A stretch of DNA of 64,000 bases from a bacterium (GCA_021811315.1 JAJZPF010000001.1:206153-270152), one strand, 5' to 3'; positions 29,896-46,151 are shown, counted from the first letter of the stretch. A program made the numbers and translations. Notes: generated from the letters alone by a model not told the origin.

Positions 29896-30467
29896 TGGAA
29901 GACGCTGAACTGAAAGAATATCTCTCCTCCTCCGGAGCTTTCCTAGAAGGCCATTTTCTTCTTTCTTCCGGCCTGCACAGCCCGAATTACGTGCAGTGCG
30001 CCCAGGCCCTTAAGAATCCCGCCTGGGCGGAAAAAATGGGCGCGGCGCTTGCCGCCGGCTGGAAGGGCCCCAGGCCGGACCTTATCCTTTCCCCGGCCAT
30101 GGGCGGCCTGTTCATCGGCCACGAGGTCGCCAGGGCTTTCGGCGTCGATTTTATTTTTACCGAGCGCGAAAACAATATTATGACCTTGCGCCGCGGTTTT
30201 TCCCTGAAGAAGGGCTCGCGCCTGATAATAGTTGAGGACGTTTTTACCACCGGGAAATCCACCCTGGAAACCGCCGCCGTAGTTTCTTCTTTCGGCGCCG
30301 AAACCATCGGGGCAATGTCGGTGATCAACCGCATGGGCGGAAAAACCCTCCCTTTCCCTTCTTCAAGCCTGCTTAAACTCGACCTGACCGCCTACCAGCC
30401 GGCTGACTGCCCGCTGTGTAAGGCGGGGGTGCCGGTAGTAAAGCCCGGCTCCAGGAAATTTCCGTGA
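29895..30467 (+). CDS. pyrE: Orotate phosphoribosyltransferase
   Basis: 190-aa ORF. PRPP-binding loop LIIVEDVFTTGKS. TAATG overlap with pyrF. Confidence 0.92.
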   Translation: MEDAELKEYLSSSGAFLEGHFLLSSGLHSPNYVQCAQALKNPAWAEKMGAALAAGWKGPRPDLILSPAMGGLFIGHEVARAFGVDFIFTERENNIMTLRRGFSLKKGSRLIIVEDVFTTGKSTLETAAVVSSFGAETIGAMSVINRMGGKTLPFPSSSLLKLDLTAYQPADCPLCKAGVPVVKPGSRKFP

Positions 30468-31270
30468 AAAAACTCCTCGCCGCGCTCCTGGTCTTTTCCA
30501 GCCTGGCCGCGGCGCGCGCCGAGAATTTTAACAAGGATACCCGGGAGTTTTATTCCAAGAACGGAGTTTATACTCTTAAGGCCGGCTATTCGGCGCAAGG
30601 CGGCGGCGGCCGGGCCAGGCTGGAACTTCACGGGGCGGGCGGCAAGAAGATCTCTGTTTTCGAGACCGAGCGGGCGCCTTTCACAGTGACAATTTCCGGC
30701 GACGGGCAGCGGCTTTTCTTTTTTTGCGGCGCCTGGGGGCAGAGCGTAAGCATTTACACCCTTAACGTCCACAGCGCTTCAGGCGAGCTCCTGGCCGGCC
30801 ACCAGGTCCAGATGCAGGGCCCGGCCGGTGAAGATTTTTCAGAGGACTTCTCCGTCTACGCGCTCGGCGCCGACCAGGGCTCAGCCTGGTCCATCCTTGT
30901 CCTGAACGCCGAAACCGGAGAGCTGCTGTGGCGTAAAAAATTCAAAGAGAAGCTTGCGGGGCTTAAACTTTCAGGTTCGGGCGAAAGGCTGCTGGCCCTT
31001 TTTATCACCGGAGAGAACGGCCGCCGCGCCGTAGTTTTCAATAAAGAAGGCAAAGAGCTCTGGAGCAAGGCGCTCGCGACGGGAAACAATCTGGTCCCGA
31101 AGGTTTTCAGCGGCGACGGCTCCGAGTTGGAGATAGTGGAGAGCCGGATGGTTTATGACGAGAAGGACGGCTACTGGCACGACAAGGTGCTGAAGAATCA
31201 TACCTACAGCTTCGCCCCGGACGGCTCGGAAGAGCCGGGTTCGGAGATAGTCGTTAAAAAACACAAATAA
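30464..31270 (+). CDS. Secreted beta-propeller-like hypothetical protein
   Basis: 268-aa ORF with a GTG start overlapping the pyrE stop. Signal peptide. Recurring blade-like S-G-D/S-G-x-x-hydrophobic segments (ISGDGQRLFFF, LSGSGERLLALF, FSGDGSELEIV). Confidence 0.6.
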   Translation: MKKLLAALLVFSSLAAARAENFNKDTREFYSKNGVYTLKAGYSAQGGGGRARLELHGAGGKKISVFETERAPFTVTISGDGQRLFFFCGAWGQSVSIYTLNVHSASGELLAGHQVQMQGPAGEDFSEDFSVYALGADQGSAWSILVLNAETGELLWRKKFKEKLAGLKLSGSGERLLALFITGENGRRAVVFNKEGKELWSKALATGNNLVPKVFSGDGSELEIVESRMVYDEKDGYWHDKVLKNHTYSFAPDGSEEPGSEIVVKKHK

Positions 31271-31289
31271 ACCTCCCGGGCCCGGGAGG
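31262..31289 (-). terminator. Palindromic hairpin terminating the minus-strand giant-protein operon
   Basis: Perfect 18-nt palindrome cctcccgggcccgggagg (31272-31289). On the minus strand it is followed by TTTATTTGTGTTTTTT. Confidence 0.55.
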
Positions 31290-31291
31290 AG

Positions 31292-31975
31292 TCAGACCAG
31301 GAAACTGAGTTTATCGAAAAATAAAAGCGCGCCCGCGGCGGCGAGCAGGCAGCCCGCGGCTATTTCCACGTAGCGCATCGCGGATTTGAAGCGCGCTATC
31401 AGGGTGAAGAATTTGGCCGCGAGCAGGGCGGCCAGCAGAAGCGGCAGCGCCATCCCGGCGGAGTATACAAGAAGGAGCGAGATCCCTTTGGCCGCGGTCC
31501 CGGAGACAGCCGCCATGCCCAGGATCACCGCAAGGATGGGCCCGATGCAGGGCGACCAGCCTAAAGCGAAGGCGAAGCCCATCAGGAAAGAGCCGAGCGG
31601 GCCCTGCACCAGGCCGCGCGTCGAAAAGTGTTTGTCGTAATTCAGGATATTGAGGTTGAAGAGGCCCGCCATATGCGCGCCCATCAGGACCATTACCACG
31701 CCGAAAACTTTTATGAGCGTTTCTTTGTGCGAGGCCAGCAGGTCGCCCAGGGTGGAAGCCGCGGCGCCCATAAGGGCGAAAGCCAGGGTGAAGCCGGCGA
31801 TGAAAATAGCGGCGTTCCCCACGACTTTTCTCGTAACCACTTTCGCGTCGCCTTTCACTATCTCCGAGGCTGAAAATCCGGAAAGCATCGAAAGGTAGGC
31901 CGGCAGAAGAGGAAGAATGCACGGCGAAAAGAAAGACATCAGCCCCGCCCCGAAAGCCGCGATATACTGGGCCAT
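31292..31975 (-). CDS. ccdA: Cytochrome c biogenesis / thiol-disulfide transmembrane reductant transporter CcdA (DsbD family)
   Basis: 227-aa ORF. FSPCILPLLPAYLS and WSPCIGPIL, the two conserved Cys-containing helices. Confidence 0.85.
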   Translation of the reverse strand: MAQYIAAFGAGLMSFFSPCILPLLPAYLSMLSGFSASEIVKGDAKVVTRKVVGNAAIFIAGFTLAFALMGAAASTLGDLLASHKETLIKVFGVVMVLMGAHMAGLFNLNILNYDKHFSTRGLVQGPLGSFLMGFAFALGWSPCIGPILAVILGMAAVSGTAAKGISLLLVYSAGMALPLLLAALLAAKFFTLIARFKSAMRYVEIAAGCLLAAAGALLFFDKLSFLV

Positions 31976-31994
31976 ATTCCTGATCCTTAATAGT

Positions 31995-32969
31995 TTAAAA
32001 TTTCTTCTTCAGCGTTATGCGCTGGGTGCTGCCCAAAGCGCCTTCAGGCGACATCGCATAATCCAGGTCGGCATTCATCAGTTTGATGCCCGCACCCGCG
32101 CTGAATGCGCCTGCTGCGCTTTGGCCCGAGCCACCATTGACACCGCCGCGCAGGCTAAGTCCAGTCATTGTTTCCGGCCCGCCGAACAAGGCGTATTCCG
32201 TGCCCAGGCTATAGGTTGTATTCTTGTCATACACATAACGCCTGGCGTCGAAATTCAGCATAAAACCCGCAACCGGCATAAACATTATACCGGCGCTCAC
32301 GCTTAAAGGCAACTGGTCTCTCTGGGAAATGTATTTAATGCCGGGGCCAAGGTTCTGGACAGCGACACCTACTGATACGGGTAGACCTCTTAAACCGCGT
32401 TTCACACCTATATCCACGGCGTAGCCTGTTCCCTTAACGCCTGCAATGGAACTTTCTATATATTTTACAGACCCGCCCACACTATATCTGCCGTATTGCT
32501 TAGCCAAGGCAAGACTTGCCGCCTGGTCGTAGGCTGAATAGCCGCCGCTTCTGGACCTGGAGGCCGTGCGGCCTTCCATACTGCCGCTGGATAGCCTTGC
32601 GAAACTTAAACCCATTTTCCACTTTGATGACCCCGGCAGTGCGAAACCCGCACCTATAAAGTCATGCACTGTGCCTAAATACAAGGCGCTATGGCTTAAA
32701 GCGGCCTCACCTTTACTCATTGAGGAAAGTCCGGCAGGATTATACGCTATGGCGCTTATTCCCATTGCGGACGCCGCCCCGGCCGAAGACATGGCCCCCG
32801 CCCTTGCGTCCGTGTCTATACGCAGAAACTCGGCGCCGCTTTCAAGCGCCTCACTTATTTTTACAGACGGGGTAAAAACAAACACAAGCGCCGCGCCCAA
32901 TACCCATGGCCTTGAAAGTAAATAGACAATGCGGTTCATCATGTCATGAGGGTTAGTTTTATCTTTCAT
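31995..32969 (-). CDS. PorV/PorQ-family outer-membrane beta-barrel
   Basis: 324-aa ORF. FLRIDTDARAGAMSSAGAA..AIAYNPAGL N-terminal signature, alternating beta-strand pattern, LPLSVSAGI, GTEYAL, DLDYAM near the C-terminus. The Shine-Dalgarno overlaps the stop of the giant gene. Confidence 0.65.
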   Translation of the reverse strand: MKDKTNPHDMMNRIVYLLSRPWVLGAALVFVFTPSVKISEALESGAEFLRIDTDARAGAMSSAGAASAMGISAIAYNPAGLSSMSKGEAALSHSALYLGTVHDFIGAGFALPGSSKWKMGLSFARLSSGSMEGRTASRSRSGGYSAYDQAASLALAKQYGRYSVGGSVKYIESSIAGVKGTGYAVDIGVKRGLRGLPVSVGVAVQNLGPGIKYISQRDQLPLSVSAGIMFMPVAGFMLNFDARRYVYDKNTTYSLGTEYALFGGPETMTGLSLRGGVNGGSGQSAAGAFSAGAGIKLMNADLDYAMSPEGALGSTQRITLKKKF

Positions 32970-32977
32970 AAGCCCTC

Positions 32978-35900
32978 CTATCTTACCACCGCGAACTTTC
33001 CGGTCTTCTTAAGTTTCTGGCCGGCTTTCTGCGCTTCTATGTAGTAAAGGTAGACCCCGGTCGGGATATGGCCGCGCCAGGTGTATTCATAGGCGTAGCT
33101 TAAGCCATTGCCGTCGTCCAGTTCGGCTGGCATCCCCGTAAGCGTGTATTCGTGCGCCGCCCTGCCGCTTACGGTGTAGATGGTTATTTTCACGCTGTCG
33201 GCTAGGCCGGTTTCGATATGAAAGGTGGGGGCCTCACTGCCCTTGGCGGGGTTAGGGAAGACATAGACCTCGCCGAGCCTGAACTCCGGGTCGGCCGCGG
33301 AGGCGAATACCCCGCCCTCGTCGGAAACACGGGTTCTCTTTACCTGTTCTGTGACCGAGACCGCGTAGCTGGCCGCCACCACCTGGTATTGAGAGAAATG
33401 CGGCACATCCGCTTTTACAAGCTTTGCCGAAGCATCCCGGCGTGAAGGCAGAAGTTCCCATGCGCCCGAAGTTTCGTTCCAGTAGGCGATAGCGAGTTTC
33501 TCGGGGGATTTCTCCGCTACATCATAAGGCAGGCTTATAGTCAGCGGCTTATCGAATTTGGAGCCTTCCGGGCCGAATTCATAAGCGGAACCGCGCCTGC
33601 CGAGGCGTCCAGCCTTAGCGGCACGCTCTTTACGCGCTTCGTTTTCTGTTCTGTCGCCATCGATGCTTAGGACATACAGCTCGCAGTCGTCTTTTACCGA
33701 CCCGGCCGGGGCGTCGAAAGCTGCGTGCTTGTGGTGCTCGCCATGGCCGCCGCCGCGGCGGCTTATCTTCTGGGGCCTTATTGTTCTTATTGTGCCCTCG
33801 GCGCTGAATTTTTTTCCATCGGCCAGCACGCCTGAGACAGTGATCTTAACCACGGCGTTCTCCGGCAGCAGCGGCATTACCTTTTCCCTGTCGAATTTAA
33901 CCGTGATCGAGCCGCACTCGATGGAATATTTTTTATGTTCTTTTTCTTTCTTCTCCTGAGCAAAGAGCGGATTCGCCAGCGGCTGGCCGTTGATGGCGCT
34001 AATATTTATAGTTTCGCGCTTGAAGCAGCCGGCAGATGCGGGGTCGATACGCAGCTCCGCGGTTATCGACTCACCTTCGCTCTTCAGGTTCAGGACTTCA
34101 GGTTTAACGTCGAGGCTTATCGAATACGCTGGCGCTGGGCTCGCCCGCAGCAACGCGTACAGCGAGGTATGGTAGATCTCGCCTTCCAAAGTAGCCGAGC
34201 CGTCCGCATTGAAAGTAACCTGCTGATTATAGATGGAGGCGCTGGTCCAGGCCACCGTTACCGTGTCGAAGTAATAGATGGCCACCGTGTTTGTGTCTAT
34301 CTCCGCAGGGTCGAACGTGAACTTAAGTTTTGCCGGTTCCGTGAATACTACGCCGCTCGGCAGCAGTTCATAAAACGCGCTCGACACCGGCGAAAGTCCT
34401 GCATCGGTCATAGCGGCGAACACAGGGGTCGTAGAAGATATAGTTTCTGTAGAAAGAGTGGTAACTGTCAGGTCGGCTCCCGGAGCCGTTACTATTAGAA
34501 GACCGTCATCGCTCGGAACGGGCACGGGGGTAACTTCAAGCAGCGCTTCGGCGCTGAAGATGCCGTAGCGGACCTTGACCCTGGTCTTACCGTATCCCGA
34601 CCCAGTGGCTAGTCCGCCATCGGGGCTGATGGCTGCGACCGTGTCATACGCAACCGACCAGGCCAGCCCGTCGGACGCGTCCAAAGCGCGCTTTGAGGCG
34701 TTGCTATAATTGGCGGAGACAGTGAACTGCTGTGTTTTCCCCTCTTCTACGGTAGCGGTGGAGGGAGCTATCACTATGGAGGTCAATGCGGGGCTTAATG
34801 CGCCTCTGAACCCGGAATCATATAATTCAGCCGACAAGCTGGACGAGCTGCCGTCGGAACCGCCGCAGACCAGCACTTTACCTCCGGGCAAGAGCAGGGC
34901 CGCGGCGTGATAACGCCTGCTCTGGCTCATAGAAGCCGTAATATAGAACGCTTCATCTGCTGGGTCGTAGAGCTCCGCCGAGGAAAGCGTGCTGCCGCTC
35001 GCGTATTCGTCGCCGCCGGCCACAAGCACATTCCCGTCGGGCAGCGAGACCGCGACATGACCGACCAATCTGCCGGCATTCGTGGAGCCCACGTCGGTAA
35101 AGGTCCCGGTAACCGGATCGTATACTTCGGCCACGAAAACCGCCACGCTGCCGTCATAACCGCCGATCACCAGCACTTTGCCGTCCGCCAGCGATACGGT
35201 TTCCACGAACTTACGCGCCCTTTTCATCTGCCCTGTCGTCGGCGCAAATGAGTTGTTAAGAGGATCGTATATCTCGGCCGTTGCCAGGGGTACGCCGTTC
35301 CCGAATCCGCCCACTATCAGCACTTTGCCGTCCGGCAATAATTCGGCGGAATGCAGATATCTGGGCGACGTCATCTCACCTGCCGGCGAGAACGTGCCTG
35401 CGACCGGATCGTACAATTCGGCCGAGGAAACCGGTCCGTTCTCGTCGGACCCGCCGGCTATCAACACCCTGCCGTCGGGCAATAGGGTGGAAGTGTGCGC
35501 ATACCTGCCGACCGCCATAGGGCCGGTTTTCGAGAAACCGAACGTGGATGGGTCGTACAGTTCGGCCAAGGTTATTACCGCGCTGCCGTTTATTCCCCCG
35601 GTCAGCAGCACCCGGCCGTCAGATAGCAGGGTGGCGGCATGGGTTCTGCCCCTGGGCTCGCTCATTGAACCGGTGACGGTAAATACCCCTGTTAGCGGGT
35701 TATATAACTCGGCCGAGGAAAGGATTCCGGAATCGCCGTTGCCGCCGGCGATCAGCGCCATCCCGTCAGGCAGCAAAGTAGCGGTATGAAGATGCCTGGG
35801 TTCCGTCATTGGACCTGTGGCAATAAATCTAGGCACGAACGGCAGAGCAGCGACTGTCAGCGCCGCGTCCGCGCTAAGGCTGCCGGAACTGACCGTGATA

Positions 35901-38900
35901 CGGGCCTGGCCAAAAGACACCCCCGTGGCCAGGCCGTCGGTGGTGATGTAAGCAACCGTCGCGGGGACAACGGACCAGGTCAGCCCGTCCGACACGCCTA
36001 GAACGCGGTTCGTGCCGTCGCTGAAATAACCCGTGGCCGCGTATTGCCGCGTGCCGCCGGGCTCTACGGTGGCGCTGGAGGGGTTTACAGTCATGGATTC
36101 AAGCAATGACGGAGAAGCAAAGCCGAAATTGTACAGTTCAGCCGAGGAACTGGAGGAACTGCCGTCGGAACCGCCGCAGACCAGAACTTTGCCGCCGGGC
36201 AGCAGCAGCGCCGCTGCGTGATAACGCCGGCTCTGGTTCATCGGAACCGTTAATGAAAATGTTTTGGAGGCCGGGTCGTAGACCTCAGCCGAAGAAATGG
36301 TGCCGCCGTCCGCGTACTCGTTGCCGCCGGCTACCAGCACTTCGCCGTTGGGCAGCAGAGTGGTGGTATGGCCGACCGATCTTCCCACATTGGTAAGGCC
36401 TGAGTCGGTAAAGGTCCCGGTAACCGGATCGTATACTTCGGATACCAAAACCGTCGCGCTGCCGTCATAACCGCCGATCACCAGCACTTTGCCGTCCGCC
36501 AATGATGCGGTTTCGACGAACTTACGCGCTCTTTTCATCTGCCCTGTCGTCGGTGCAAATGAGTTATTAAGAGGATCGTATATCTCGGCCGTTGCCAGGG
36601 GTACGCCGTTCCCGAATCCGCCTACTATCAGCACTTTGCCGTCCGGCAATAATTCGGCGGAATGCAGATATCTGGGCGACGTCATCTTACCTGCCGGAGA
36701 GAAAGTGTCTGCGACAGGATCGTACAATTCGGCCGAGGAAACCGGCCCGTTCTCGTCGGACCCGCCGGCTATCAAAACCCTGCCGTCTGACAATAAGGTA
36801 GCGGTGTGCGCGTACCTTCCAGTCGCCAGCGGGCCCGTTACCGAGAACTTGCCCGAGCCCGGGTTGTACAGCTCGGCCAGTGTGATCACAGCGCTGTTAT
36901 TTATACCGCCGGTCAGCAGCACCCGGCCGTCAGACAGCAGGGTGGCGGCATGGGTTCTGCCCCTGGGCTCGCTCATTGAACCGGTGACGGTAAATACCCC
37001 TGTTAGCGGGTTATATAACTCGGCCGAGGAAAGAATTCCCGAACTGCCGTTCCCACCGGCTATAAGCACGGTGCCGTCGGACAGCATGGTGGCGGTATGG
37101 AGATGCCTTGGTTCGGTCATGTCACCCGTGGAGGAAAACGAAGCCGGGACAGGAGTATAAATAAATAAACCTGCGGAAGCGCTAAAGCCGCCCAGACTGA
37201 CCCTGACCTGCGTTCTGCCATATCCGAGGCCGGTTATCAGGCCGTTCTGGTCAGCGGCTGCTACCGTGCTGTGGTCAACAGACCAGAGTGCCCCGTCGGA
37301 GGCGATAATAGTGCGTGTAGTTCCGTCGCTGAAGCTGCCCTGAGCCGTGAATTGCTGGCTGCTTCCGGGTTCCAGGAACACGAGAGGCGGGTTAAGCGTG
37401 AGAGAGGTCAGTTGGACAGGAGGCTTCACTTCAATATATATAGCTTTTCCAGTTTCCGCATTCCTGACATTGTCCACGCTTTGGTAATAAATAGTATAGC
37501 CGCCGACGGGGAGGTTGAACGGACCGGAGTAAAAACTGTTCTCACAGCTTCCCATCCCGTTTATGCCGCCGCTGGCCCATTCACTATACTCGCAGTCCTC
37601 CGGAGAGACGCCCACCAGGAAATAGGTAGTGGCCAGCCCGCTCATTACGCCGTTGGAAATGGTATCCGTCGCCACGAGCGTTATAAAGTCCGCAGTGGTA
37701 GCGTAGACGGTGGCGCTAGGGGCGATAGGGAGTCCGTTCAACTCAAGAGCGGACTCGGGCGGGGTGCTGTCTACGCGCAATTGGGCGAAATTCGTCTCGC
37801 CGAGATTGTCTATTTTGTCTATGGCGTAGTAGTGTATGGCGTGAGCCCCCTCGCCAAGCGGGAAAGGCCCGTCGTAAATCTTCGGCGCTGGTTCCGCGTC
37901 CAACTGATAATATGTGCTGGCCGCGCCGGCCAGGGCGAAAGTGTTGGAAGACCTGTCCTCGGCGGTCAGCTCCACCGGCGAAGAGGAGCTTATATAAACA
38001 GCGCCGTCTTTCTCAAAGGTGTTTTCCACTTTAAAGATCACCACCGGGCCGGCATTGTCGTACATGCTTAGAGGGGCCACCAGCGAGAAAAGCGAGTTGC
38101 TGCCGGAAAGCCTGGTCACGCAGTGGTCCGCGTCGGCCAGGTCCAGGGCGTATTCTTCGTCGGCGGTGCCTACAAGTCTTAGGTCTTCTTGCGTCCCGTT
38201 GTCCAGATAATGCCTGATCCCCAGCTGAACTGCTTCCGATGGAAGCATGCCGCAGGTTTTTATCTTTATGCCGGAATACAAGGCGCCGTCATATTTTATA
38301 TGCAGGGAGCGGTTTAAGCCGGGCGGATAGACGACATAATTTTTGGGCGCAGCCGGCGAGGGGACGCTTTCCATCGTCAGCTTGCTCCCCGGACCCGCGT
38401 TAAGGTTGTAAAAAGTGATAATGGAACCCTCGAAGCCGAATTTGACCCCGGCGGTTGTCGCGGAGGAGTTCCTGACAAAAGCCTCCGCCGGCCCGTTCGC
38501 GAGGGACGCTATGCTCTGGCCGGCAAGCGAAACAGTGCAGGCGTCGTTACAGATATTTTCCCCGTTTATTATATTGCAGATCTTCGGGGTTACGCTGACG
38601 GAGACGTTGCCGTGCAGCCATATCCCGGGTGTTGCAACCACCTGCGGAGTCAGGGAGGCCGAGGTAAGCGCGGCCGAAATTGAAACGCCATCAGGCAGGC
38701 CGTCCTCTATGGGAACGGTGAAAGTGTTCCGCGCCGAAGTTATTGTTATGGCGCAGGGCTCTCCGCTGGCCGTCACTTCCGAAATATAATTGGCCACCAG
38801 GTTGGTCTGCCCCGGAGCCACTTCTCCGCCTGCGGCGGTTTTTATGAACTCAAAGATGGGCTGGGGACTCCCGTTCCGGGCTTTGTCCTGGGCGCTGAAA

Positions 38901-41485
38901 ACGTAATAGCTGCCCGACTCTACGTTCAATTCCGGGGAGGTGAAAGGAATAAGTTCCCTGCTTCCCGGCATCGGCGCAAAATCATGATGTAAGCCGCCGC
39001 CATCCAGATGAAAAAAGTCCATGCCGCTGTTCGTGTCCTGCACCGTGCCGTGGATAGTATAGGTCCCGGCGGCCACATCCATGTCTACCCCGCCGATATT
39101 AAGCCGCGGACTTTCGGGGTCCACGCGGAACCACATGGTGGTGAAGTTACCTTTATTATCCCACACGGTCTGCTCATACAGCCCGTCTTCCAGGTTCAGC
39201 TCTATTTCCTGATTGTAGACATGAGGGGCATAAGAGAATTTGCGTACTACCGTATTGTCAGCGACGTTGCGGATGGTTATCTCTTTTATCCCGGAGCCGA
39301 TATCCCTGTAACTGAACCGGACCCGGTTCCAGGCTAAATCTATAGGCTCGGCTTCGGTGCCGCAGGTATCTCCGCCGCAGCCGTAGGCGAGGATGTGGTT
39401 CCTGTCCTCGTAGCCTATCGACGGCGGGAAGCCGGCCTCCACGCGCAGCGAGTGGAACTTGTCAGAGCCGCCGCCGGCGGGCATATAGCCGCTGGCGTCG
39501 CGGGTGAGCTCACGGGCGGGGTCTATATAGGATTTATCGGGGTCGATCTTAAAAAGCTCGTTGGACGTGCCCGCGATGTCCGCGCCCCTGATCTCCAGGG
39601 GAAGCATCGCATCCTGGAGATAGTAATTACCTATGGCCAAAGTGGAGACCTGCACCGAAGTGAACGGCGTAAAAGCATTATTGATGTTCACCAGCGAGGC
39701 TTCGAACATTGGCTCGCTGAAAGTGGTAATGACGGTGTACTCGCCGGGGACGATGGGCTCTTCCACGCTGGGCGCGTAGGACCGCAACATGGATTTATCG
39801 TCGAGCTCCCAAGAGCGTTTATAAAAGGTTGTGGTGCTTTGTTTCACTTCCACCTGCTTGACATAGGGGCGGAAGTTGTCGAGGGTAACCATCGTGGGAG
39901 CGCTGATAAAGCGTTCGGATTCTTCCCTATCCATGCTTTCTGCCACAGCAACCAGCCCGTACCGACCGTCTGGATAGGCCGCGTCCTCGTTGAGATTAGC
40001 TAGTACAGGCGGAATTTCGCCGGCGAAATCCTTGCGTATCCTCGTATTCCATTGGTTAAAAACAAATTCGGTTCTGGGTGTGGTGCTCAGGCTCCCGAGC
40101 GGGTTAAGCCCGGTTCTTGTGCCGTCGCTCCTGTAATCGTTTCCAGTATTGTTTATAAAAGGAGGGAAGGCATTATCCTCCTCGAATAAGGGGGAACCAC
40201 CCACAGTCCCGCCGTAATCGAATTCGGCGCGGAACGGATCAGCGGGGTCGGGAAGTTGGTCGGCGAATGTGGTTTGCACATCCCTATTGCCGTTTATGAG
40301 ATACGTATTAGCAGCCGCATCCGCTGGCGTCAAATTTGGGAGGACAGCTTCGGGGATAGCCATAAGCCTGAGCCGGTCCAGTTCATAGGAATGATAGGTT
40401 TTCCAATTCACTACTTCCGGCCCTGCCGGCCCTTCCACCACTTCCGGACGCCAGCGTATGCTGGCCTTCACACGCTCATTGTTATGGTCCATGGTGTGGT
40501 AAAGAATGCTTTCCTCCGTCGGAGTGGATACCTCACCTGAGAACTGGCTATGGCCGCGCGCGAGGTATTGCACTACATTATTCCAGCCGTCATTGAATAA
40601 AGGATTGCCTGGTTGTTTCCCGTTATAAAGCGTCAGGTCAGGGGAACTTACCTGCAAGTGGAGGTGAGCGTTATTGGTGCCGGATTTGCCCAGCGGAGCA
40701 ATTATTTCACCTGGACCCACCGCGGTTTGCGGGACAATATAGCCGGCCCTGGATTCGGCAATTTTATTGGGGCCGGCAGTTATATTGTTTCCATCATAAC
40801 CATCATCACCCTGTTTCAGGGTATTAAGAACTCCATCTGTGCCGCAGGAGACCACGATCGTGTTTTCATCTGGGGTCTGCGTTCCGACCGGCACAATCTG
40901 GTCATCTTTGCCTGCCTCGCTTTCCGGTACTTTGATTTGGAGATCAGTATGTATTCCGTCTATCCCCAAAGCCTGGACAATTCGCCCGGTTTGATTCAAG
41001 CCGGAGTAAAGAAGAACTACTCCCCTATTTACTATGCCCTCGGTATAAATTCTTTTATAGCTGCGTATTGGTGCGGTTTGTCCGACTCCGACAAAATTCC
41101 CGGATTCAATATCCTTGTGAGGGAAAATATGCAAATAAGCAAAATTTCTTCCGCCGCCGTAGTTGACTCCTATCCACTTAATCCCACTCCCGGTTTTGCC
41201 TATTCCAAAAATAGTGCCAAAACCAGCAGCGGTTACGGGGTAGTTTATATCTAAATCTCCAGACAAGTCTTTTGCATTAAGGTCTATGCCTTTATGAAAA
41301 AATGTGCCCACTGTGATTGGGTTGCCGTCAGCGTCAACCCCTAAATCCCTGGGACCATAGGCGGAATCAACACGGTATTCAATCCCGTAAGGGTCTATCG
41401 GCCAAGGCAAGACTTGCTGGGCTGAGACATCCACCAAAGGAAAAACAATAAAGCCAAGTGAAACAAGACACGACTTCAGGTTCAT
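32978..41485 (-). CDS. Giant secreted multidomain protein: signal peptide, split M23-like metallopeptidase head, 3 Big_2-like Ig domains, two 7-bladed Kelch propellers, T9SS-type C-terminal sorting domain
   Basis: 2,835-aa uninterrupted ORF. FHKGIDL and NAHLHLQ (M23 HxGxD / HxH). Big_2-like segments (e.g. LTLNPPLVFLEPGSSQQFTAQGSFSDG). 14 Kelch-type blades (PRxxHTATLLxDGxVLxxGG). C-terminus VYVFPNPAKG...ITIYTVSGR...GVYLYYIEA...KFAVVR. Confidence 0.85.
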   Translation of the reverse strand: MNLKSCLVSLGFIVFPLVDVSAQQVLPWPIDPYGIEYRVDSAYGPRDLGVDADGNPITVGTFFHKGIDLNAKDLSGDLDINYPVTAAGFGTIFGIGKTGSGIKWIGVNYGGGRNFAYLHIFPHKDIESGNFVGVGQTAPIRSYKRIYTEGIVNRGVVLLYSGLNQTGRIVQALGIDGIHTDLQIKVPESEAGKDDQIVPVGTQTPDENTIVVSCGTDGVLNTLKQGDDGYDGNNITAGPNKIAESRAGYIVPQTAVGPGEIIAPLGKSGTNNAHLHLQVSSPDLTLYNGKQPGNPLFNDGWNNVVQYLARGHSQFSGEVSTPTEESILYHTMDHNNERVKASIRWRPEVVEGPAGPEVVNWKTYHSYELDRLRLMAIPEAVLPNLTPADAAANTYLINGNRDVQTTFADQLPDPADPFRAEFDYGGTVGGSPLFEEDNAFPPFINNTGNDYRSDGTRTGLNPLGSLSTTPRTEFVFNQWNTRIRKDFAGEIPPVLANLNEDAAYPDGRYGLVAVAESMDREESERFISAPTMVTLDNFRPYVKQVEVKQSTTTFYKRSWELDDKSMLRSYAPSVEEPIVPGEYTVITTFSEPMFEASLVNINNAFTPFTSVQVSTLAIGNYYLQDAMLPLEIRGADIAGTSNELFKIDPDKSYIDPARELTRDASGYMPAGGGSDKFHSLRVEAGFPPSIGYEDRNHILAYGCGGDTCGTEAEPIDLAWNRVRFSYRDIGSGIKEITIRNVADNTVVRKFSYAPHVYNQEIELNLEDGLYEQTVWDNKGNFTTMWFRVDPESPRLNIGGVDMDVAAGTYTIHGTVQDTNSGMDFFHLDGGGLHHDFAPMPGSRELIPFTSPELNVESGSYYVFSAQDKARNGSPQPIFEFIKTAAGGEVAPGQTNLVANYISEVTASGEPCAITITSARNTFTVPIEDGLPDGVSISAALTSASLTPQVVATPGIWLHGNVSVSVTPKICNIINGENICNDACTVSLAGQSIASLANGPAEAFVRNSSATTAGVKFGFEGSIITFYNLNAGPGSKLTMESVPSPAAPKNYVVYPPGLNRSLHIKYDGALYSGIKIKTCGMLPSEAVQLGIRHYLDNGTQEDLRLVGTADEEYALDLADADHCVTRLSGSNSLFSLVAPLSMYDNAGPVVIFKVENTFEKDGAVYISSSSPVELTAEDRSSNTFALAGAASTYYQLDAEPAPKIYDGPFPLGEGAHAIHYYAIDKIDNLGETNFAQLRVDSTPPESALELNGLPIAPSATVYATTADFITLVATDTISNGVMSGLATTYFLVGVSPEDCEYSEWASGGINGMGSCENSFYSGPFNLPVGGYTIYYQSVDNVRNAETGKAIYIEVKPPVQLTSLTLNPPLVFLEPGSSQQFTAQGSFSDGTTRTIIASDGALWSVDHSTVAAADQNGLITGLGYGRTQVRVSLGGFSASAGLFIYTPVPASFSSTGDMTEPRHLHTATMLSDGTVLIAGGNGSSGILSSAELYNPLTGVFTVTGSMSEPRGRTHAATLLSDGRVLLTGGINNSAVITLAELYNPGSGKFSVTGPLATGRYAHTATLLSDGRVLIAGGSDENGPVSSAELYDPVADTFSPAGKMTSPRYLHSAELLPDGKVLIVGGFGNGVPLATAEIYDPLNNSFAPTTGQMKRARKFVETASLADGKVLVIGGYDGSATVLVSEVYDPVTGTFTDSGLTNVGRSVGHTTTLLPNGEVLVAGGNEYADGGTISSAEVYDPASKTFSLTVPMNQSRRYHAAALLLPGGKVLVCGGSDGSSSSSSAELYNFGFASPSLLESMTVNPSSATVEPGGTRQYAATGYFSDGTNRVLGVSDGLTWSVVPATVAYITTDGLATGVSFGQARITVSSGSLSADAALTVAALPFVPRFIATGPMTEPRHLHTATLLPDGMALIAGGNGDSGILSSAELYNPLTGVFTVTGSMSEPRGRTHAATLLSDGRVLLTGGINGSAVITLAELYDPSTFGFSKTGPMAVGRYAHTSTLLPDGRVLIAGGSDENGPVSSAELYDPVAGTFSPAGEMTSPRYLHSAELLPDGKVLIVGGFGNGVPLATAEIYDPLNNSFAPTTGQMKRARKFVETVSLADGKVLVIGGYDGSVAVFVAEVYDPVTGTFTDVGSTNAGRLVGHVAVSLPDGNVLVAGGDEYASGSTLSSAELYDPADEAFYITASMSQSRRYHAAALLLPGGKVLVCGGSDGSSSSLSAELYDSGFRGALSPALTSIVIAPSTATVEEGKTQQFTVSANYSNASKRALDASDGLAWSVAYDTVAAISPDGGLATGSGYGKTRVKVRYGIFSAEALLEVTPVPVPSDDGLLIVTAPGADLTVTTLSTETISSTTPVFAAMTDAGLSPVSSAFYELLPSGVVFTEPAKLKFTFDPAEIDTNTVAIYYFDTVTVAWTSASIYNQQVTFNADGSATLEGEIYHTSLYALLRASPAPAYSISLDVKPEVLNLKSEGESITAELRIDPASAGCFKRETINISAINGQPLANPLFAQEKKEKEHKKYSIECGSITVKFDREKVMPLLPENAVVKITVSGVLADGKKFSAEGTIRTIRPQKISRRGGGHGEHHKHAAFDAPAGSVKDDCELYVLSIDGDRTENEARKERAAKAGRLGRRGSAYEFGPEGSKFDKPLTISLPYDVAEKSPEKLAIAYWNETSGAWELLPSRRDASAKLVKADVPHFSQYQVVAASYAVSVTEQVKRTRVSDEGGVFASAADPEFRLGEVYVFPNPAKGSEAPTFHIETGLADSVKITIYTVSGRAAHEYTLTGMPAELDDGNGLSYAYEYTWRGHIPTGVYLYYIEAQKAGQKLKKTGKFAVVR
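34530..37425 (-). repeat. In-frame tandem duplication inside the giant gene: about 2.2 copies of a 1,311-nt (437-codon) Big_2 + 7-blade Kelch unit
   Basis: Sequence at 34861 and at 36172 aligns with a 1,311-nt offset. The plus-strand shadow ORFs 35178..35789 and 36489..37160 are near-identical. A third Big_2 copy lies at about 34530-34790. Confidence 0.85.
39181..39885. repeat. ~0.7-kb block near-identical to 42622..43326 (3' end of the head-only paralog)
   Basis: Direct nucleotide alignment with a constant offset of 3,441 nt. Only scattered mismatches, plus one ~45-nt divergent patch (39246-39290). Confidence 0.85.
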
Positions 41486-41496
41486 AACCTTTCCTT

Positions 41497-42402
41497 TTAA
41501 AACTGTAGCTTCTCTGTCTTAACCCGTCTTGTCTTGATATCCCAAAAATGAATAATTGTAATCTCTCGTTTGTCTTCAGAAATATTCATTTTTTCTATAT
41601 TTTTAAATGCCGAATTAGGAATAGTGAGTTTGTTTAGCTCAAATTTGTTCTCTTTTGTATCAAACACGCTTATCGCGGCCTTGCCGCCGGGAATTAAATC
41701 ATCTACCAGTAAGATATATCTGTCGTTATCTGAAAAAAAAGTTGGGCCAAGAAAGGAAACTTCAGCTAAAATTTCTTTTCTTAGATTTAAAATTTTTAGA
41801 CCTTCACTTTCTCCAACGGTCACAGCAAAAAATTGTCCAGTATTAGAAACCAGAGGGTTCCAGCCTTCCGTATTGTTTAGCGTTAATATTTCTTTCCCTT
41901 CCGCGTTATACACTCTGGCAATAGAAGTGTTTTCAACCGGGTCCTCCGCATATTCACTGTCGGATTTAATGTCCGCGTATTCCACAAAATCTAGGCGCGA
42001 CTCTTCTAGCACTAGGTATTTTTTATTATCACTAATCCGTGCAGAATTGCTTTCCTGCCTTACATGCTCAATATCCCTGCCGCTATGCTTGCGGAGCGAT
42101 TCAATGGCCTCTGCCACGGCTGTACTTATATTCACCTTTAACCCGGAGCGGTCGAAAACCTTCTCTTTGCCTATATGTGTTCGGATTTCTGTTTCCCCCA
42201 CACCAAGTTCTTTTACTTTCTTCCCACTCTTATCATGGAAGCGGATAACTTTGTGGTTATTCTCAAAGACTTCTTCAATTCGTTGGTTGGGGCTTGCCAC
42301 CTGCGGGATATCCTTGGCTTTAGTGGGCGTCGGCTCCGTATCTTTTGCCAGCAACATCGTGGCTAAAGCAGAAATCATCAATAAAGCTATAAAGCTTTTC
42401 AT
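41497..42402 (-). CDS. Small secreted protein, copy 1 (beta-propeller-like; unknown function), first gene of the giant-protein operon
   Basis: 301-aa ORF. Signal peptide MKSFIALLMISALATMLLA. Conserved NQRIEEVFENNHK..RFHDK. Blade-like ISDNKKYLVLE, VSNTGQFFAVT, FSDNDRYILLV. AGGAGAG Shine-Dalgarno. Paralog of 44901..45812. Confidence 0.75.
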   Translation of the reverse strand: MKSFIALLMISALATMLLAKDTEPTPTKAKDIPQVASPNQRIEEVFENNHKVIRFHDKSGKKVKELGVGETEIRTHIGKEKVFDRSGLKVNISTAVAEAIESLRKHSGRDIEHVRQESNSARISDNKKYLVLEESRLDFVEYADIKSDSEYAEDPVENTSIARVYNAEGKEILTLNNTEGWNPLVSNTGQFFAVTVGESEGLKILNLRKEILAEVSFLGPTFFSDNDRYILLVDDLIPGGKAAISVFDTKENKFELNKLTIPNSAFKNIEKMNISEDKREITIIHFWDIKTRRVKTEKLQF

Positions 42403-42518
42403 AAGTCTCTCCTGTGCGTTTTGCTTCAGTGCGGTACGGTGGCGGTGTGGTTCTCAGCGGTGTTGTGTAAACCCCAATTGCCTGCCCATGTTATAGCAGA
42501 CAAAACTCCGAGATTCAA
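42403..42518 (-). promoter_or_regulatory. Sigma70-like promoter (TTGAAT-17-TATAAC) plus ~80-nt C/A-rich 5' UTR, copy 1
   Basis: Minus strand: -35 at 42518..42513 and -10 at 42495..42490. The leader CAGGCAATTGGGGTTTACACAACACCGCTGAGAACCACACCGCCACCGTACCGCACTGAAGCAAAACGCACAGGAGAGACTT precedes the ATG. It is duplicated at 45813..45929. Confidence 0.55.
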
Positions 42519-42613
42519 TGCTTTGGCACTCAATTTATATTTAATTTATAATAATCAATTTATGGGGCAGTAACTTCTTCATGCGCGCAACCTGTCGCTT
42601 CTCTGGTTAGCAC

Positions 42614-44884
42614 TCATAATAAGCCGTCCTCCAGGTTCAGCTCTATTTCCTGATTGTAGACATGAGGGGCATAAGAGAATTTGCGTTCCGGGGTTGCCGA
42701 CGTGCTTATGCGGATGCTTATCTCCCGTATCCCGGAGCCGATATCGGCGTAGCTGAACCGGACCCGGTTCCAGGCTAAAGCGATAGGCTCGGCTTCGGTG
42801 CCGCAGGTATCTCCGCCGCAGCCGTGGGCGAGGATGTGATTCCTGTCCTCGTAGCCTATCGACGGCGGGAAGCCGGCCTCTACATGCAGCGAGTGGAACT
42901 TGTCCGAGCCGCCGCCGGCGGGCATATAGCCGCTGGCGCCGCGGGTGAGCTCCAGGGCGGGGTCTATGTAGGATTTATCGGGGTCGATCTTTAAAAGCTC
43001 GTTGGCCGTGCCCGCGATGTCCATGCCCCTGATCTCCAAGGGAAGCATCGCGTCCTGGAGATAGTAATTACCTATGGCCAGAGTGGAGACCTGCACCGAA
43101 GTGAACGGCGTAAAAGCATTATTGATGTTCACCAGCGAGGCTTCGAACATGGGCTCGCTGAAAGTGGTAATGACGGTGTACTCGCCGGGGACGATGGGCT
43201 CTTCCACGCTGGGTGCGTAGGACCGCAACATGGATTTATCGTCGAGCTCCCAAGAGCGTTTATAAAAGGTTGTGGTGCTTTGTTTCACTTCCACCTGCTT
43301 GACGTAGGGGCGGAAGTTGTCGATGGTTATCATCTTAGGGTAGCTGATAAAACGCTCGGATACTTCCCGATCGACGCTTTCCGCCACTGCGATCAGGCCA
43401 TATTGGCCATCCGGATAGGCTGCGTCTTCATTGCGGTACGCCAAGCCGGTAAAACTTTTATTTATTCCTGTGTTCCATTGGTTGAAAACAAAATCGGTTA
43501 TCGGAGTGACCGCAAGGTCCCCTTGGGGGTTAAGGCCAGTTGTTGCTCCGTAGCTTCTGAAACCGGCCCCGGTATTACCAATAAAAGGCGGGAAGGCTAT
43601 GTCGTTGTACGCACCACCGTAATTGAATTCAGCACGAAAAGTGTCACTAGACACAGGAAGTTGCAGCGCTGTTGTTATGGGGCTTCTATTCCCATTTATC
43701 AGGTAGGTATTATCCGCAATAAGGCTTGCAAAATCCAATGTCTCTTGCGCTACTTTGTCTGGAATGACGTATATTTTCACCCTGTCCAATTCATATGGAT
43801 GATAGATTTGCCAGTCAGCTCCTACCGGACGCCAGCGTATACTAGCCGTCACACGTTCATTGTTGTGGTCATCAGTGTGGTAGAGTGTGCTGTTATCCGT
43901 GGGAACAGAAATTCCGCCGGAAAACTGACTATAATCATGCACAAGATACTGAATTACATTATCCATCCCGTCGTTGTAATCGGCGCCTGCAGATGGATCA
44001 TTCGCAAGTTTCTCATCTGCGTGGCTTATCTGCAAGTGTAGATGCGAGTTGTTTGCGCCTGATTTCCCCAATGGCGCTATTATTTCCCCAGAAATAATTG
44101 TGGTTCTAGGCACAATATAACCAGCTTTTGAGTCAGCAATTTTATTTATCCCGGCGTTTATGCATGTTTTATCGACAGAATACTCATCATCCCCCTGAGG
44201 AAGCGTGTCTAAAACCCCATCATTACCAGCACAAACGACCGAAGTATCTGAAGCAGGGGTTGGGCTATATTGTGGAATCGGCTGGGTATCAAGCGCTCCA
44301 GGAACTGCTATTTCCAGATTATTATGCATGGGGCTTATTCCCAACGCTTTAACTATCCGCCCGGTATTTTTGCCGTTTAAAACCGAACCGGAATAAAAAA
44401 GAATAATTCCCATATTGTTGTCATCAATATTATTGGCATTTTTAGTGATAATCCTGCGGTAGCTTCTTATTTGATTGTTCTGGGCAATCTGATTATTTAC
44501 CACATCACTGATGTCACCGACGACAACAGCGCTATTGTTGGGGAAAATATGCAGATATGCAAGTGTGCGATTATTTCCATAATCCACTCCGATCCATTCT
44601 ATGCCATCACTGGCACGACCTATCCCAAAAATAGTGCCATCGCCTGGGGCTATTATTGGCTGATTAAGATCCGCATCTCCGGTGTTCCCACCAGTGTTTT
44701 GTTCATTCAAGTCAAGGCCTTTATGAAAAAAAGTGCCTCTGACAACATTTCTGGGACCGTAAGCAGATTCCACTCGGTAAGGGTATCCCTCGGGGTCGGA
44801 GGGCCAGGGCAATAATTGGGCGTAGGCCGAAATTGCTGAACAGGCAATTACGCCGACAATAAAAAAATACCGTTTAAATCTCAT
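42614..44884 (-). CDS. Head-only paralog of the giant protein (signal peptide + split M23-like domain + conserved middle region), truncated at the duplication junction
   Basis: 756-aa intact ORF. FHKGLDL and NSHLHLQ motifs. The last ~235 aa are nearly identical to giant-protein residues encoded at 39181-39885. It ends ...NLEDGLL* where the giant continues ...NLEDGLYEQTVW. No Big_2, Kelch or CTD. Confidence 0.75.
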   Translation of the reverse strand: MRFKRYFFIVGVIACSAISAYAQLLPWPSDPEGYPYRVESAYGPRNVVRGTFFHKGLDLNEQNTGGNTGDADLNQPIIAPGDGTIFGIGRASDGIEWIGVDYGNNRTLAYLHIFPNNSAVVVGDISDVVNNQIAQNNQIRSYRRIITKNANNIDDNNMGIILFYSGSVLNGKNTGRIVKALGISPMHNNLEIAVPGALDTQPIPQYSPTPASDTSVVCAGNDGVLDTLPQGDDEYSVDKTCINAGINKIADSKAGYIVPRTTIISGEIIAPLGKSGANNSHLHLQISHADEKLANDPSAGADYNDGMDNVIQYLVHDYSQFSGGISVPTDNSTLYHTDDHNNERVTASIRWRPVGADWQIYHPYELDRVKIYVIPDKVAQETLDFASLIADNTYLINGNRSPITTALQLPVSSDTFRAEFNYGGAYNDIAFPPFIGNTGAGFRSYGATTGLNPQGDLAVTPITDFVFNQWNTGINKSFTGLAYRNEDAAYPDGQYGLIAVAESVDREVSERFISYPKMITIDNFRPYVKQVEVKQSTTTFYKRSWELDDKSMLRSYAPSVEEPIVPGEYTVITTFSEPMFEASLVNINNAFTPFTSVQVSTLAIGNYYLQDAMLPLEIRGMDIAGTANELLKIDPDKSYIDPALELTRGASGYMPAGGGSDKFHSLHVEAGFPPSIGYEDRNHILAHGCGGDTCGTEAEPIALAWNRVRFSYADIGSGIREISIRISTSATPERKFSYAPHVYNQEIELNLEDGLL
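42622..43326. repeat. ~0.7-kb block near-identical to 39181..39885
   Basis: See the partner feature. The offset of 3,441 nt equals 1,147 codons, so the two copies are in the same reading frame. Confidence 0.85.
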
Positions 44885-44900
44885 ACACCTCTATCCCTTT

Positions 44901-45812
44901 TCAAAAACGCACACGATCTATTTCGTTCCCTTTTGCCACCCTGACGTGAAACGGTTCGTGCGAAATTACTATTTCACGTTTATCTTCTAAAATCTCTATT
45001 TTTTTGATATTTTTAAATACCAAATTAGAAACAACTAGTTTCCTTAGTTCAAATTTATCGTTTTGTGTATCAAACACGCTGATTGAAGATTTATCTGAAC
45101 CATAGGTCATCTCTGTGAAGATTATAAATCTCTCTCTTTCTGAAAAAAGCGCTCCCCCCGAAAAATATGGTATTTCAGCTAGTATTTCCTTTTTGCGATT
45201 CATAATCCTTTGTTTTCCATATTCGCCTACTACTACAATGAATATCTGGCCGGTATTAGACACAATCGGTCGCCATCCCTCGTCCTTGCTTAATTCCAAA
45301 ACTTTATTGCCGTCTGAATCGTAAACGGTGGTGACGCAACCTGTTTCAGTGGGGTCTTCCGATCGTTCGCCGTCACTTGCCTCAGCAAAGTCCACAAAAT
45401 CCAGATAACCATCCTCAACAACAACAAACTGTTTGTTGCCGCTAAAAGACACTTCCTTAAGCTCACTGCGATATAATTCCACGTCGCGGCCGGAACTTTT
45501 CCGCATTTCCTCAATTGTTTCAGCTATTTTGGAGCTGATTTTTAGTCCGAAACTTGAGTGATCAAAGATTTTCTCTTTGCTTACACGTATTTTGGTTTCT
45601 TTTGATACAAGGTCTATATCTTTTGTTTTCTTCCCATCCTTGTCATGGAAGCGGAGAAGTTTGTGATTGTTTTCGAAGACTTCCTCAATCCGCTGATTGG
45701 GCTTTGCCGCTTGAGCATCTTCCTTGTCTTTGGCGGCAACTGGCACCGTATCTTTTGCTGACAATAAGGTACCGAAAACGAAAAACGACAATAAAGCTAT
45801 AAGGCTTTTCAT
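44901..45812 (-). CDS. Small secreted protein, copy 2 (paralog of 41497..42402)
   Basis: 303-aa ORF. Signal peptide MKSLIALLSFFVFGTLLSA. Same NQRIEEVFENNHK.LRFHDK motif and blade-like segments. 16-nt gap to the head-only M23 paralog. Confidence 0.75.
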   Translation of the reverse strand: MKSLIALLSFFVFGTLLSAKDTVPVAAKDKEDAQAAKPNQRIEEVFENNHKLLRFHDKDGKKTKDIDLVSKETKIRVSKEKIFDHSSFGLKISSKIAETIEEMRKSSGRDVELYRSELKEVSFSGNKQFVVVEDGYLDFVDFAEASDGERSEDPTETGCVTTVYDSDGNKVLELSKDEGWRPIVSNTGQIFIVVVGEYGKQRIMNRKKEILAEIPYFSGGALFSERERFIIFTEMTYGSDKSSISVFDTQNDKFELRKLVVSNLVFKNIKKIEILEDKREIVISHEPFHVRVAKGNEIDRVRF

Positions 45813-45929
45813 AAAGTCTCCCCTGTGCGTCTTGCTTCAGTGTGGTACGGTGGCGGTGTGGTTCTCAGCGGTGTTGTCTAAACCCAAATTGCCTGCCCAT
45901 GTTATAGCAGACAAAACCCGGGTATTCAA
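45813..45929 (-). promoter_or_regulatory. Sigma70-like promoter (TTGAAT-17-TATAAC) plus conserved C/A-rich 5' UTR, copy 2
   Basis: Minus strand: -35 at 45929..45924 and -10 at 45906..45901. The leader differs from copy 1 at only a handful of positions. Confidence 0.55.
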
Positions 45930-46058
45930 TGCTTTCCGATTTAAGTTATATTTGATTTATGACAGTCGAATCAGAGATTGTAATCCTTTATAAATGCGCG
46001 TAACTTGCCGCATCCCTGGTCAGTCAGCCATAGTAAAGAGTATGGGGCGGGGATTGAT

Positions 46059-46092
46059 AAATGTCAATACCTATTTCATGGTATTGACATTT
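46059..46092 (-). terminator. 13-bp perfect hairpin downstream of the kdsC-operon genes (possible terminator or insulator before the island)
   Basis: aaatgtcaatacc-tatttcat-ggtattgacattt. On the minus strand it is followed by ATCAAT, so only weakly U-rich. Confidence 0.35.
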
Positions 46093-46151
46093 CGGTGCTG
46101 GGATTAATGACGCAGGGATGGAGTGCTTGCGGGCGTGTTTCAGTAGTAGGT

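Follow-up and report, generated by a model that had tools for sequence, protein, structure and literature searches.

Why would a bacterium from a phylum with no known type IX secretion system (T9SS) encode, side by side, a giant protein that ends in a T9SS-like sorting domain and an outer-membrane barrel of the PorV/PorQ family? This question is raised by a 64,000-nucleotide stretch of bacterial DNA (GCA_021811315.1 JAJZPF010000001.1:206153-270152), here called the window, in which the gene for a 2,835-residue protein (the giant) is followed by the gene for a 324-residue barrel. A first-pass annotation had read these two genes, together with an upstream gene for a 301-residue protein (p301) and a downstream ccdA-like gene, as a single functional module in which the barrel acts as a shuttle. 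We found that the conserved unit consists of two genes, not four, and that Elusimicrobiales carry it in several copies per genome. The parts themselves are members of known families, which automatic annotation already recognises. What appears to be unreported is their arrangement, namely type A-like tails with private barrels, several cassettes in one genome and swappable giant passengers, in a phylum without a known T9SS. Our literature searches found no description of private PorV-like barrels paired with type A-like tails.

The conserved unit is a constant tail and an adjacent barrel

What recurs around the barrel in other genomes? The barrel alignment was scanned against 185,579 species genomes with two peptide patterns, which yielded 75 loci (L003-L077), of which about 72 are Elusimicrobial. 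Given this restriction to two patterns, the cassette counts per genome are lower bounds. Genomes carried at least 3-5 loci each: five in GWB2_63_22, five in GWA2_62_23, and four in each of three other metagenome-assembled genomes (MAGs). Of the Elusimicrobial loci, 62 extend far enough upstream of the barrel gene, and in 60 of these a large open reading frame (ORF) bearing the C-terminal domain (CTD) precedes it, mostly at a distance of 7-12 nt. These cargo ORFs, often cut by the 10-kb flank, reach sizes of >3,329 aa. Their last ~100 residues match the tail of the giant (E 1e-31 to 1e-61), and pairwise distances between tails correlate with those between barrels (r = 0.76, Mantel p = 0.001).

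The passengers, by contrast with the constant tail, are unrelated between cassettes and include TIG arrays, fn3, Big_13, β-helix, PQQ-type propeller and Kelch domains. The most direct view of this exchange comes from the syntenic locus L006 (giant-barrel-ccdA; L006:1-9992), in which the barrel is 91% identical to that of the window and the giant is 93% identical over its last 104 residues, whereas upstream of residue 2732 there are only weak matches among Ig-like repeats (26-39% identity). Homology to the giant breaks at residues 2727-2732 in comparisons with L006, L028, L059 and L064. Since the tail is constant and the passengers are not, the conserved mobile unit is the constant tail plus the barrel, with a replaceable passenger. 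The break in L006 is sharp and has the look of a recombination event.

The two flanking genes of the proposed module do not belong to this unit. Clustering of all neighbouring ORFs found no further family that recurs beside the pair. A ccdA gene lies 3' of the barrel only in the window's own contig (L001), L006, L018 and L028, all at the same chromosomal site; we therefore rejected ccdA as a cassette component, as it follows the barrel in only four of ~60 cassettes and all four are syntenic. A homologue of p301 is found in none of the 75 barrel-anchored loci, and p301 is instead tied to the head of the giant, as described below. The four-gene functional module thus does not hold up across genomes.

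Cargo-barrel adjacency as such is not unique to Elusimicrobiota. In a Neomarinimicrobiota MAG (L076:7838-14080), a 705-aa ORF with a CTD-like end lies 30 nt before a PorV/PorQ-family gene, which is followed by a gene for a 935-aa protein matching TIGR04183. What is documented in Elusimicrobiota is the multi-copy, one-to-one expansion. Separately, additional and more divergent barrel-like ORFs were seen near regular cassettes (L045:3406-5465 and L041:3259-4287). Behind one of them lies a short ORF that matches the tail weakly, and these ORFs may be a sign of other cassette types at greater distance.

Tail and barrel are related to T9SS families

The giant has a Sec signal peptide, and its tail lies at the very C-terminal end, where the PNPA, GxY and K-x-hydrophobic end motifs of sorting domains are present as VYVFPNPAKG, GVYLYYIEA and KFAVVR. 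In isolation it scores 23.0 bits against TIGR04183, equal to the cut-off of 23, and within the full protein 17.3 bits; against Pfam Por_Secre_tail (PF18962) it scores 18.2 bits, below the cut-off of 27. Its relatives match more clearly. In a set of 61 related tails, TIGR04183 is matched by 60 at E<0.01 (best 2e-8), the CTD end of the PorZ model by 57 and Por_Secre_tail by 36, and 29 touch the type B model CHU_C. The PorU model is matched by 19 of the 61, at its CTD end only, with no match in its catalytic part. A profile built from the 61 tails found no match among PDB sequences. Some relatives already bear the PGAP name 'T9SS type A sorting domain-containing protein [Elusimicrobia]'. By profile similarity, at threshold, we regard the tail as a relative of the type A T9SS sorting domains, in agreement with the first-pass annotation.

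The barrel was likewise correctly described as PorV/PorQ-like. It scores 116.6 bits against the PorV/PorQ family model NF033709 (cut-off 90), with residues 44-323 aligned to positions 2-325 of the 326 in the profile. Scores against the equivalog models lie below their cut-offs: 46.1 of 250 for PorV (NF033710), 76.0 of 220 for PorQ (NF033711) and 37.1 of 325 for PorV2. An AlphaFold2 model (pLDDT 67, pTM 0.64; the N-terminal segment 33-76 at low confidence) has as its top Foldseek matches two PorV structures, 6h3i_F and 8gl6_F (E 8e-10, TM ~0.59), followed by FadL and TodX; CdiB is also among the matches. The barrel keeps the PorV-family N-terminal motif, and its C-terminal end is a conserved RITLKKKF.

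Could the barrel simply take up small hydrophobic molecules, as a channel of the FadL type that has no contact with the tails of its neighbours? The rank of FadL and TodX directly after PorV would suit such a role, as would the Toluene_X or UPF0164 Pfam matches that some relatives carry. Nevertheless, we consider this highly improbable. The barrel gene stays next to a cargo gene in 60 of 62 loci despite functionally unrelated passengers, nothing but the tail is constant in the protein encoded upstream, and the N-terminal motif that is conserved is that of the PorV family.

T9SS-related parts in a phylum without a known T9SS

From which organism does the window come? It corresponds to positions 132946-196945 of a 208,661-bp metagenome contig (ENA ERZ27237050 k141_336134) that carries an identical barrel protein, and all close relatives with organism names are Elusimicrobia or Elusimicrobiales MAGs. 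On the basis of these relatives, we assign the window to the genome of an uncultured member of the Elusimicrobiota. The flanking genes are chromosomal housekeeping genes, among them mutS, mutL, pyr genes, parAB, asd and those for a MacAB-TolC-type pump.

This assignment is at odds with the accepted range of T9SS. Reviews restrict the system and its sorting domains to Bacteroidota (PMC10202324, PMC11611037), and one from 2023 describes the sorting domains as Bacteroidota-only, tracking the T9SS core genes (PMC10202324). Our literature searches found no paper linking Elusimicrobia with T9SS, and searches on PorV-like paralogues and on T9SS in other candidate phyla returned nothing relevant. We found no T9SS family (SprA/Sov, PorK/L/M/N, PorU, PorZ or PorW) in 84 kb of the contig (record positions 123027-206681), and clustering of neighbouring ORFs showed no T9SS core family recurring beside the cassettes.

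Two rival explanations were weighed. The first is that the giant is an ordinary T9SS cargo: a complete T9SS is encoded elsewhere, the barrel is the general PorV shuttle, a PorU sortase cleaves the tail, and the four genes, including ccdA, form one operon. The tail and barrel do fall in T9SS families, and the genes share one orientation, with little space between them and one strong terminator. We nonetheless regard this explanation as quite unlikely. Each genome has several barrel paralogues, each beside its own cargo, which is unlike a shared shuttle; the PorV and PorQ equivalog cut-offs are missed widely; the matches to the PorU model reach the CTD end only, with no catalytic part; and ccdA and p301 have the distributions described above. 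The earlier reading of the barrel as a shuttle thus survives in its tight coupling of cargo and barrel, but not as a shuttle held in common, as several paralogues are paired one-to-one.

The second explanation is that the pair is self-sufficient for secretion. Here, the PorV-like barrel, together with the β-barrel assembly machinery (BAM), would export and anchor its neighbour in the manner of a split autotransporter or a two-partner system, without SprA/Sov or PorKLMN. The strict one-to-one pairing, with a 7-12 nt gap that suggests co-ordinated production, the presence of several pairs in each genome, the host phylum as seen against the restriction drawn by the reviews, the lack of any paper joining Elusimicrobia and T9SS, and the lack of T9SS families in the 84 kb or recurring beside cassettes all speak in its favour. 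However, the absence of core genes applies to 84 kb of contig, and PorV-type barrels are known as carriers, not channels. Strong conservation of the tail across paralogues fits one common machine, and for Kelch propellers and Ig domains the crossing would require either an unfolded state in transit or folding on the outside. We judge this explanation unlikely, though less so than the ordinary-cargo one. In its widest form, the cargo tail and PorV-like barrel would be a complete translocon-independent export-and-display system in a phylum devoid of the T9SS motor and translocon, perhaps ancestral to the carrier step of T9SS, and a swappable platform whose passengers include lytic heads with cognate protective proteins; we judge this, too, unlikely.

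A proposed carrier and anchor

We favour, with moderate confidence, a reading in which the barrel first carries and then permanently anchors the tail of its own neighbour, and serves that protein alone. The giant would be exported by Sec and ends in the constant ~108-residue domain related to T9SS type A CTDs. The barrel, predicted to be of the 14-strand type, would insert in the outer membrane and bind this tail, and the resulting complex would hold the giant on the cell surface. The M23-like head at the N-terminus would then lie far from the anchored tail, followed by the Ig-like domains and two Kelch propellers. There is precedent for such retention in Bacteroidota, where retained CTDs are bound by cognate PorV-like barrels in PorZ/PorQ and PorU/PorV, and in type B cargo with PorP/SprF (PMC10202324; anchoring of retained CTDs is also treated in PMC10994853). 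For type B cargo, the cognate carriers are encoded adjacently (PMC12618676).

Several points weigh against a private anchor. The tails of paralogous cassettes are very alike (mean column identity 63%), a likeness that points to a common partner, either in addition to a private one or in its place. The correlation between tail and barrel distances could be explained by co-duplication alone. By its profile scores the barrel is a member of the PorV/PorQ family but not an orthologue of PorV or PorQ, as it lies far below the equivalog cut-offs. The evidence for an M23 head is sub-threshold. Finally, the anchor model does not account for the passage of 2,700 residues across the outer membrane, and no translocon gene was seen in the 84 kb of contig. 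The crossing could proceed through an unseen SprA-type translocon or through the barrel itself.

The passenger of the giant and its M23-like head

What does the cassette in the window carry? The N-terminal part of the giant consists of a signal peptide (MNLKSCLVSLGFIVFPLVDVSA), the M23-like head, a middle region common with a short form of the protein encoded upstream, and Ig-like and OmpL47-type domains. The C-terminal part holds two successive units of a Big_2 domain and a seven-blade Kelch propeller, then a third Big_2 domain, an unannotated region and the CTD. Pfam matches are above cut-off for both Kelch_1 (248.9 bits, 1.3e-75) and Big_2 (76.2 bits, 1.9e-21, in three stretches), PDB Kelch proteins match with E values down to 1e-30, and there are exactly 14 blade motifs, two sets of seven; the three Big_2-like segments and 14 Kelch blades described in the first-pass annotation are therefore correct. 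The ~437-aa unit of Big_2 plus propeller is tandemly duplicated within the giant, with 75% protein and 80% DNA identity.

The head is harder to place. Its motifs, FHKGID (H64-x3-D68), Y117-L-H119 and HLH (H274-L-H276), follow the order of the M23 motifs HxxxD, (Y)xH and HxH, with an insertion of ~150 aa within the presumed M23 fold. H64, D68 and H119 are invariant in five of five aligned head homologues, and H274 and H276 are present wherever the sequence reaches, in the giant, its 756-aa paralogue and L064 (HLHLQ). Peptidase_M23 (PF01551) matches the giant with 23.5 bits (E 6.4e-5, residues 63-137 against profile positions 2-68) and the paralogue with 24.8 bits (E 2.6e-5), both below the cut-off of 28.7. 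These two matches are collinear and complement each other along the profile: that of the giant spans the half with HxxxD, that of the paralogue the half with HxH.

An AlphaFold model of the head from a five-sequence alignment had a pLDDT of 30 and was unusable, the head-family profile matched no M23 chain among PDB sequences at E<10, and hhalign of the head with lysostaphin aligned 26 columns of the HxH stretch only, at 9% probability. A word-indexed homologue search with the head returned only three fragments, which were used for gene context. Thus, from the earlier claim of an M23 peptidase, the zinc-ligand motifs stand, but the Pfam match is below cut-off and the family profile finds no M23 structure. 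We call the head M23-like on these sub-threshold matches and conserved catalytic motifs, which tentatively suggest peptidoglycan-hydrolase activity.

At the predicted signal-peptide cleavage site of all head proteins (41410-41425 and 44815-44825 in the window), we noticed a conserved Gln in the context A|Q-x-LPWP, which recalls the 'Q-rule' of Bacteroidetes (PMC5837995). It is not seen in the giants of other cassettes.

A second copy of the head and its p30x partner

The window holds a further pair of genes upstream, at 42614-45812, that the first-pass annotation had overlooked. A tandem DNA duplication of ~3.4 kb (46036-42624 versus 42622-39183), which includes the promoter-like leader, has produced a p301 paralogue (p303) and a short form of the head protein. 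The latter has a signal peptide, the M23-like head and the middle region, without CTD, Kelch domains or barrel, and is 64% identical to residues 1-769 of the giant (blastp). The ratio of nonsynonymous to synonymous substitution rates (dN/dS) is 0.21 for p303 versus p301 and 0.25 for the 756-aa protein versus the giant, with a range of 0.12-0.25 for both copies, which indicates that both copies are under purifying selection. We considered whether the 756-aa ORF might be a decaying pseudogene and rejected this, given its dN/dS of 0.25 and a comparable short form in L078. Because the short form in L078 likewise stands before a p30x-head pair, the short head form is a real gene type. Synonymous sites are saturated in the 5' part of the duplication, whereas its 3' kilobase has a synonymous divergence (dS) of 0.40 and is 86% identical to the giant gene. 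The 3' kilobase has thus been homogenised more recently, and its identity to the giant gene suggests gene conversion.

The p30x proteins follow the head. In seven independent pairs, five of them on separate contigs (L078, L079, L080, L081 and L083) and two in the window, the gene immediately 5' of an M23-like head gene encodes a p30x homologue. Since p30x genes sit by head genes and are lacking from the barrel loci, p301 is a partner of the head and not of the CTD-barrel cassette. The family comprises 28 clusters among 1.84 billion representatives. Neither p301 nor p303 matches a Pfam or NCBIfam family, and the single p301 sequence has no PDB match. The family profile has one marginal PDB match, to the β-propeller blade region of eIF2A (E 9e-4), and hhalign of p301 with a PD40-repeat protein gave a probability of 16%. 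The label 'propeller-like' given earlier to p301 hence rests on the one marginal eIF2A match. Plausible roles for p301 and p303 are those of a periplasmic inhibitor, an immunity protein or a chaperone, and the head with its upstream secreted p30x protein looks like an arrangement of enzyme and inhibitor or immunity protein. G+C content is 37-50% over 40500-46000, which spans both p30x genes and both heads, versus ~60% in the rest of the window. This low G+C fits, and suggests, a separate origin of the head-p30x module, which would have been grafted onto a resident cassette.

Two further observations concern this family. The p30x domain is also fused to the C-terminus of ~700-aa proteins (P0169, P0171, P0176 and P0180; L081:698-2827), and P0180 has a near-threshold match to zinc phospholipase C (25.9 versus 26.8 bits). 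As for phospholipase-C-like heads in other cassettes, which we had suspected by eye, Pfam gave no support and the idea was rejected.

Locus layout and control signals

The coordinates of all features are collected in Table 1. The ORF calls and translations agree with the four minus-strand ORFs reported earlier, with intergenic gaps of 19 nt (ccdA/barrel), 8 nt (barrel/giant) and 11 nt (giant/p301). As also reported, the TAG stop codon of the giant gene lies inside tAGGAGGgcttATG, the Shine-Dalgarno sequence of the barrel gene, and a hairpin (CCTCCCGGGCCCGGGAGG) with a T-run follows ccdA at 31289-31262; this is the top terminator-like site on the minus strand between 31000 and 46400, the interval scanned. 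The CcdA label is sound: the protein matches DsbD_TM (PF02683) with 71.9 bits (cut-off 27.1), and both membrane cysteines, Cys19 and Cys143, are present in SPC motifs. Because no strong terminator precedes it, ccdA is probably co-transcribed here, as a neighbour specific to this chromosomal site.

Table 1. Positions of features in the window (all coordinates from its first nucleotide)
Feature	Coordinates	Strand	Remarks
ccdA-like gene, 227 aa	31292-31975	minus	DsbD_TM match
Barrel gene, 324 aa	31995-32969	minus	PorV/PorQ family by NCBIfam and structure model
Giant cargo gene, 2835 aa	32978-41485	minus	ORF with Pfam/NCBIfam domains
C-terminal sorting domain, residues ~2728-2835	32981-33304	minus	Relative of T9SS type A CTDs; constant part of cargo
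Big_2/Kelch region	34526-37435	minus	Three Big_2 domains bracketing and separating two 7-blade propellers
Head domain, residues 25-330	40496-41413	minus	M23/LytM-like by sub-threshold matches and motifs
p301 gene, 301 aa	41497-42402	minus	Secreted; partner of M23-like head gene
Short head gene, 756 aa	42614-44884	minus	Paralogue of giant residues 1-769
p303 gene, 303 aa	44901-45812	minus	Secreted; p301 paralogue; first gene of the upstream duplicate
Promoter-like element	42490-42518	minus	TTGAAT-17-TATAAC upstream of p301 gene
Promoter-like element, second copy	45901-45929	minus	Upstream of p303 gene
Intrinsic terminator	31262-31289	minus	7-bp GC-rich hairpin and T-run

The σ70-like promoter proposed at 42518-42490 is a more mixed case. 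The sequence TTGAAT-17-TATAAC can be read there directly, but a consensus promoter scan gives no call, because the scan demands T at the last position of the -10 element. Promoter-like matches are not enriched in the region over shuffled sequence (5 found versus 13.4 expected). The motif recurs, however, at 45929-45901, upstream of p303, and the unrelated contigs L078 and L080 have it as well; on the strength of this recurrence we treat it as a conserved promoter-like element. The leaders 3' of the -10 element (42403-42489 and 45813-45900) are near-identical between the two copies. Each has an imperfect hairpin (TTGTCTGC...GCAGGCAA) as well as a box (ACACAACACCGC), the latter shared with L078. 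Rfam has no match in 31000-46400, the leader included. On the plus strand, TTGGCA-18-TATAAT at 42523-42552 is the best promoter-like match of the region (11/12) and points antisense into the gene for the 756-aa protein.

Elsewhere in the window, there are two clostripain-family (Peptidase_C11) genes, at 19172-20638 and 60667-61983, the second followed by an unannotated 583-aa ORF. A convergent 268-aa ORF at 30464-31270 has weak similarity to PQQ/BamB-like propellers and is kept beside ccdA in L028.

Significance and comparison with known systems

Why do these cassettes matter? A sorting domain and a PorV-like carrier, parts that touch each other in T9SS, occur here as a stand-alone one-to-one pair. 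If the genomes lack a translocon, the pair is a minimal secretion or anchoring device and offers a route to the origin of the T9SS carrier. If they have one, T9SS extends beyond its accepted range and a new rule of private carriers applies to type A-like tails. In either case, the replaceable passengers show how uncultured Elusimicrobiota diversify their surface, and the sharp breakpoint between constant tail and passenger is a natural fusion point for surface-display work. Apart from this, the M23-like head and its conserved neighbour p30x form a candidate enzyme-inhibitor pair. In M23/LytM endopeptidases such as lysostaphin and LytM, the motifs HxxxD, YxH and HxH stand in the same order as in the head of the giant, which differs in its sub-gathering scores and in the ~150-aa insertion in the presumed fold.

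How does the cassette compare with known pairs of cargo and barrel? Its closest counterparts are PorZ-PorQ and PorU-PorV, in which a type A-like CTD is likewise kept and a PorV-like barrel holds the protein, as we propose here; of the PorQ and PorV models, the former gives the barrel of the window the higher score. The Elusimicrobial cassettes differ from these pairs in comprising several adjacent gene pairs per genome, in their huge and variable cargo, which takes the place of a fixed part of the machinery, in lying outside Bacteroidota and the Fibrobacterota-Chlorobiota-Bacteroidota (FCB) group, and in scoring below the equivalog cut-offs. PorV (LptO) itself, the general shuttle for type A cargo, shares the family, the fold and the N-terminal motif, but is a single gene that serves many cargoes, whereas here there is one barrel per cargo.

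In genetic organisation, the cassettes resemble type B cargo with PorP/SprF, such as SprB-SprF (PMC12618676, PMC9143113), in which giant adhesin-like cargo is also linked to a private carrier and one genome also holds several specific pairs. The difference lies in the parts: the barrel here is of the PorV/PorQ family and the tail is nearest to type A, even though 29 of the 61 tails touch CHU_C. TpsA/TpsB two-partner secretion and autotransporters share with the cassette a large passenger that is encoded together with a dedicated outer-membrane barrel. In contrast to these systems, the barrel here is of the FadL/PorV type without POTRA domains, recognition would lie in a C-terminal domain, and conduction of the passenger by the barrel is not indicated.

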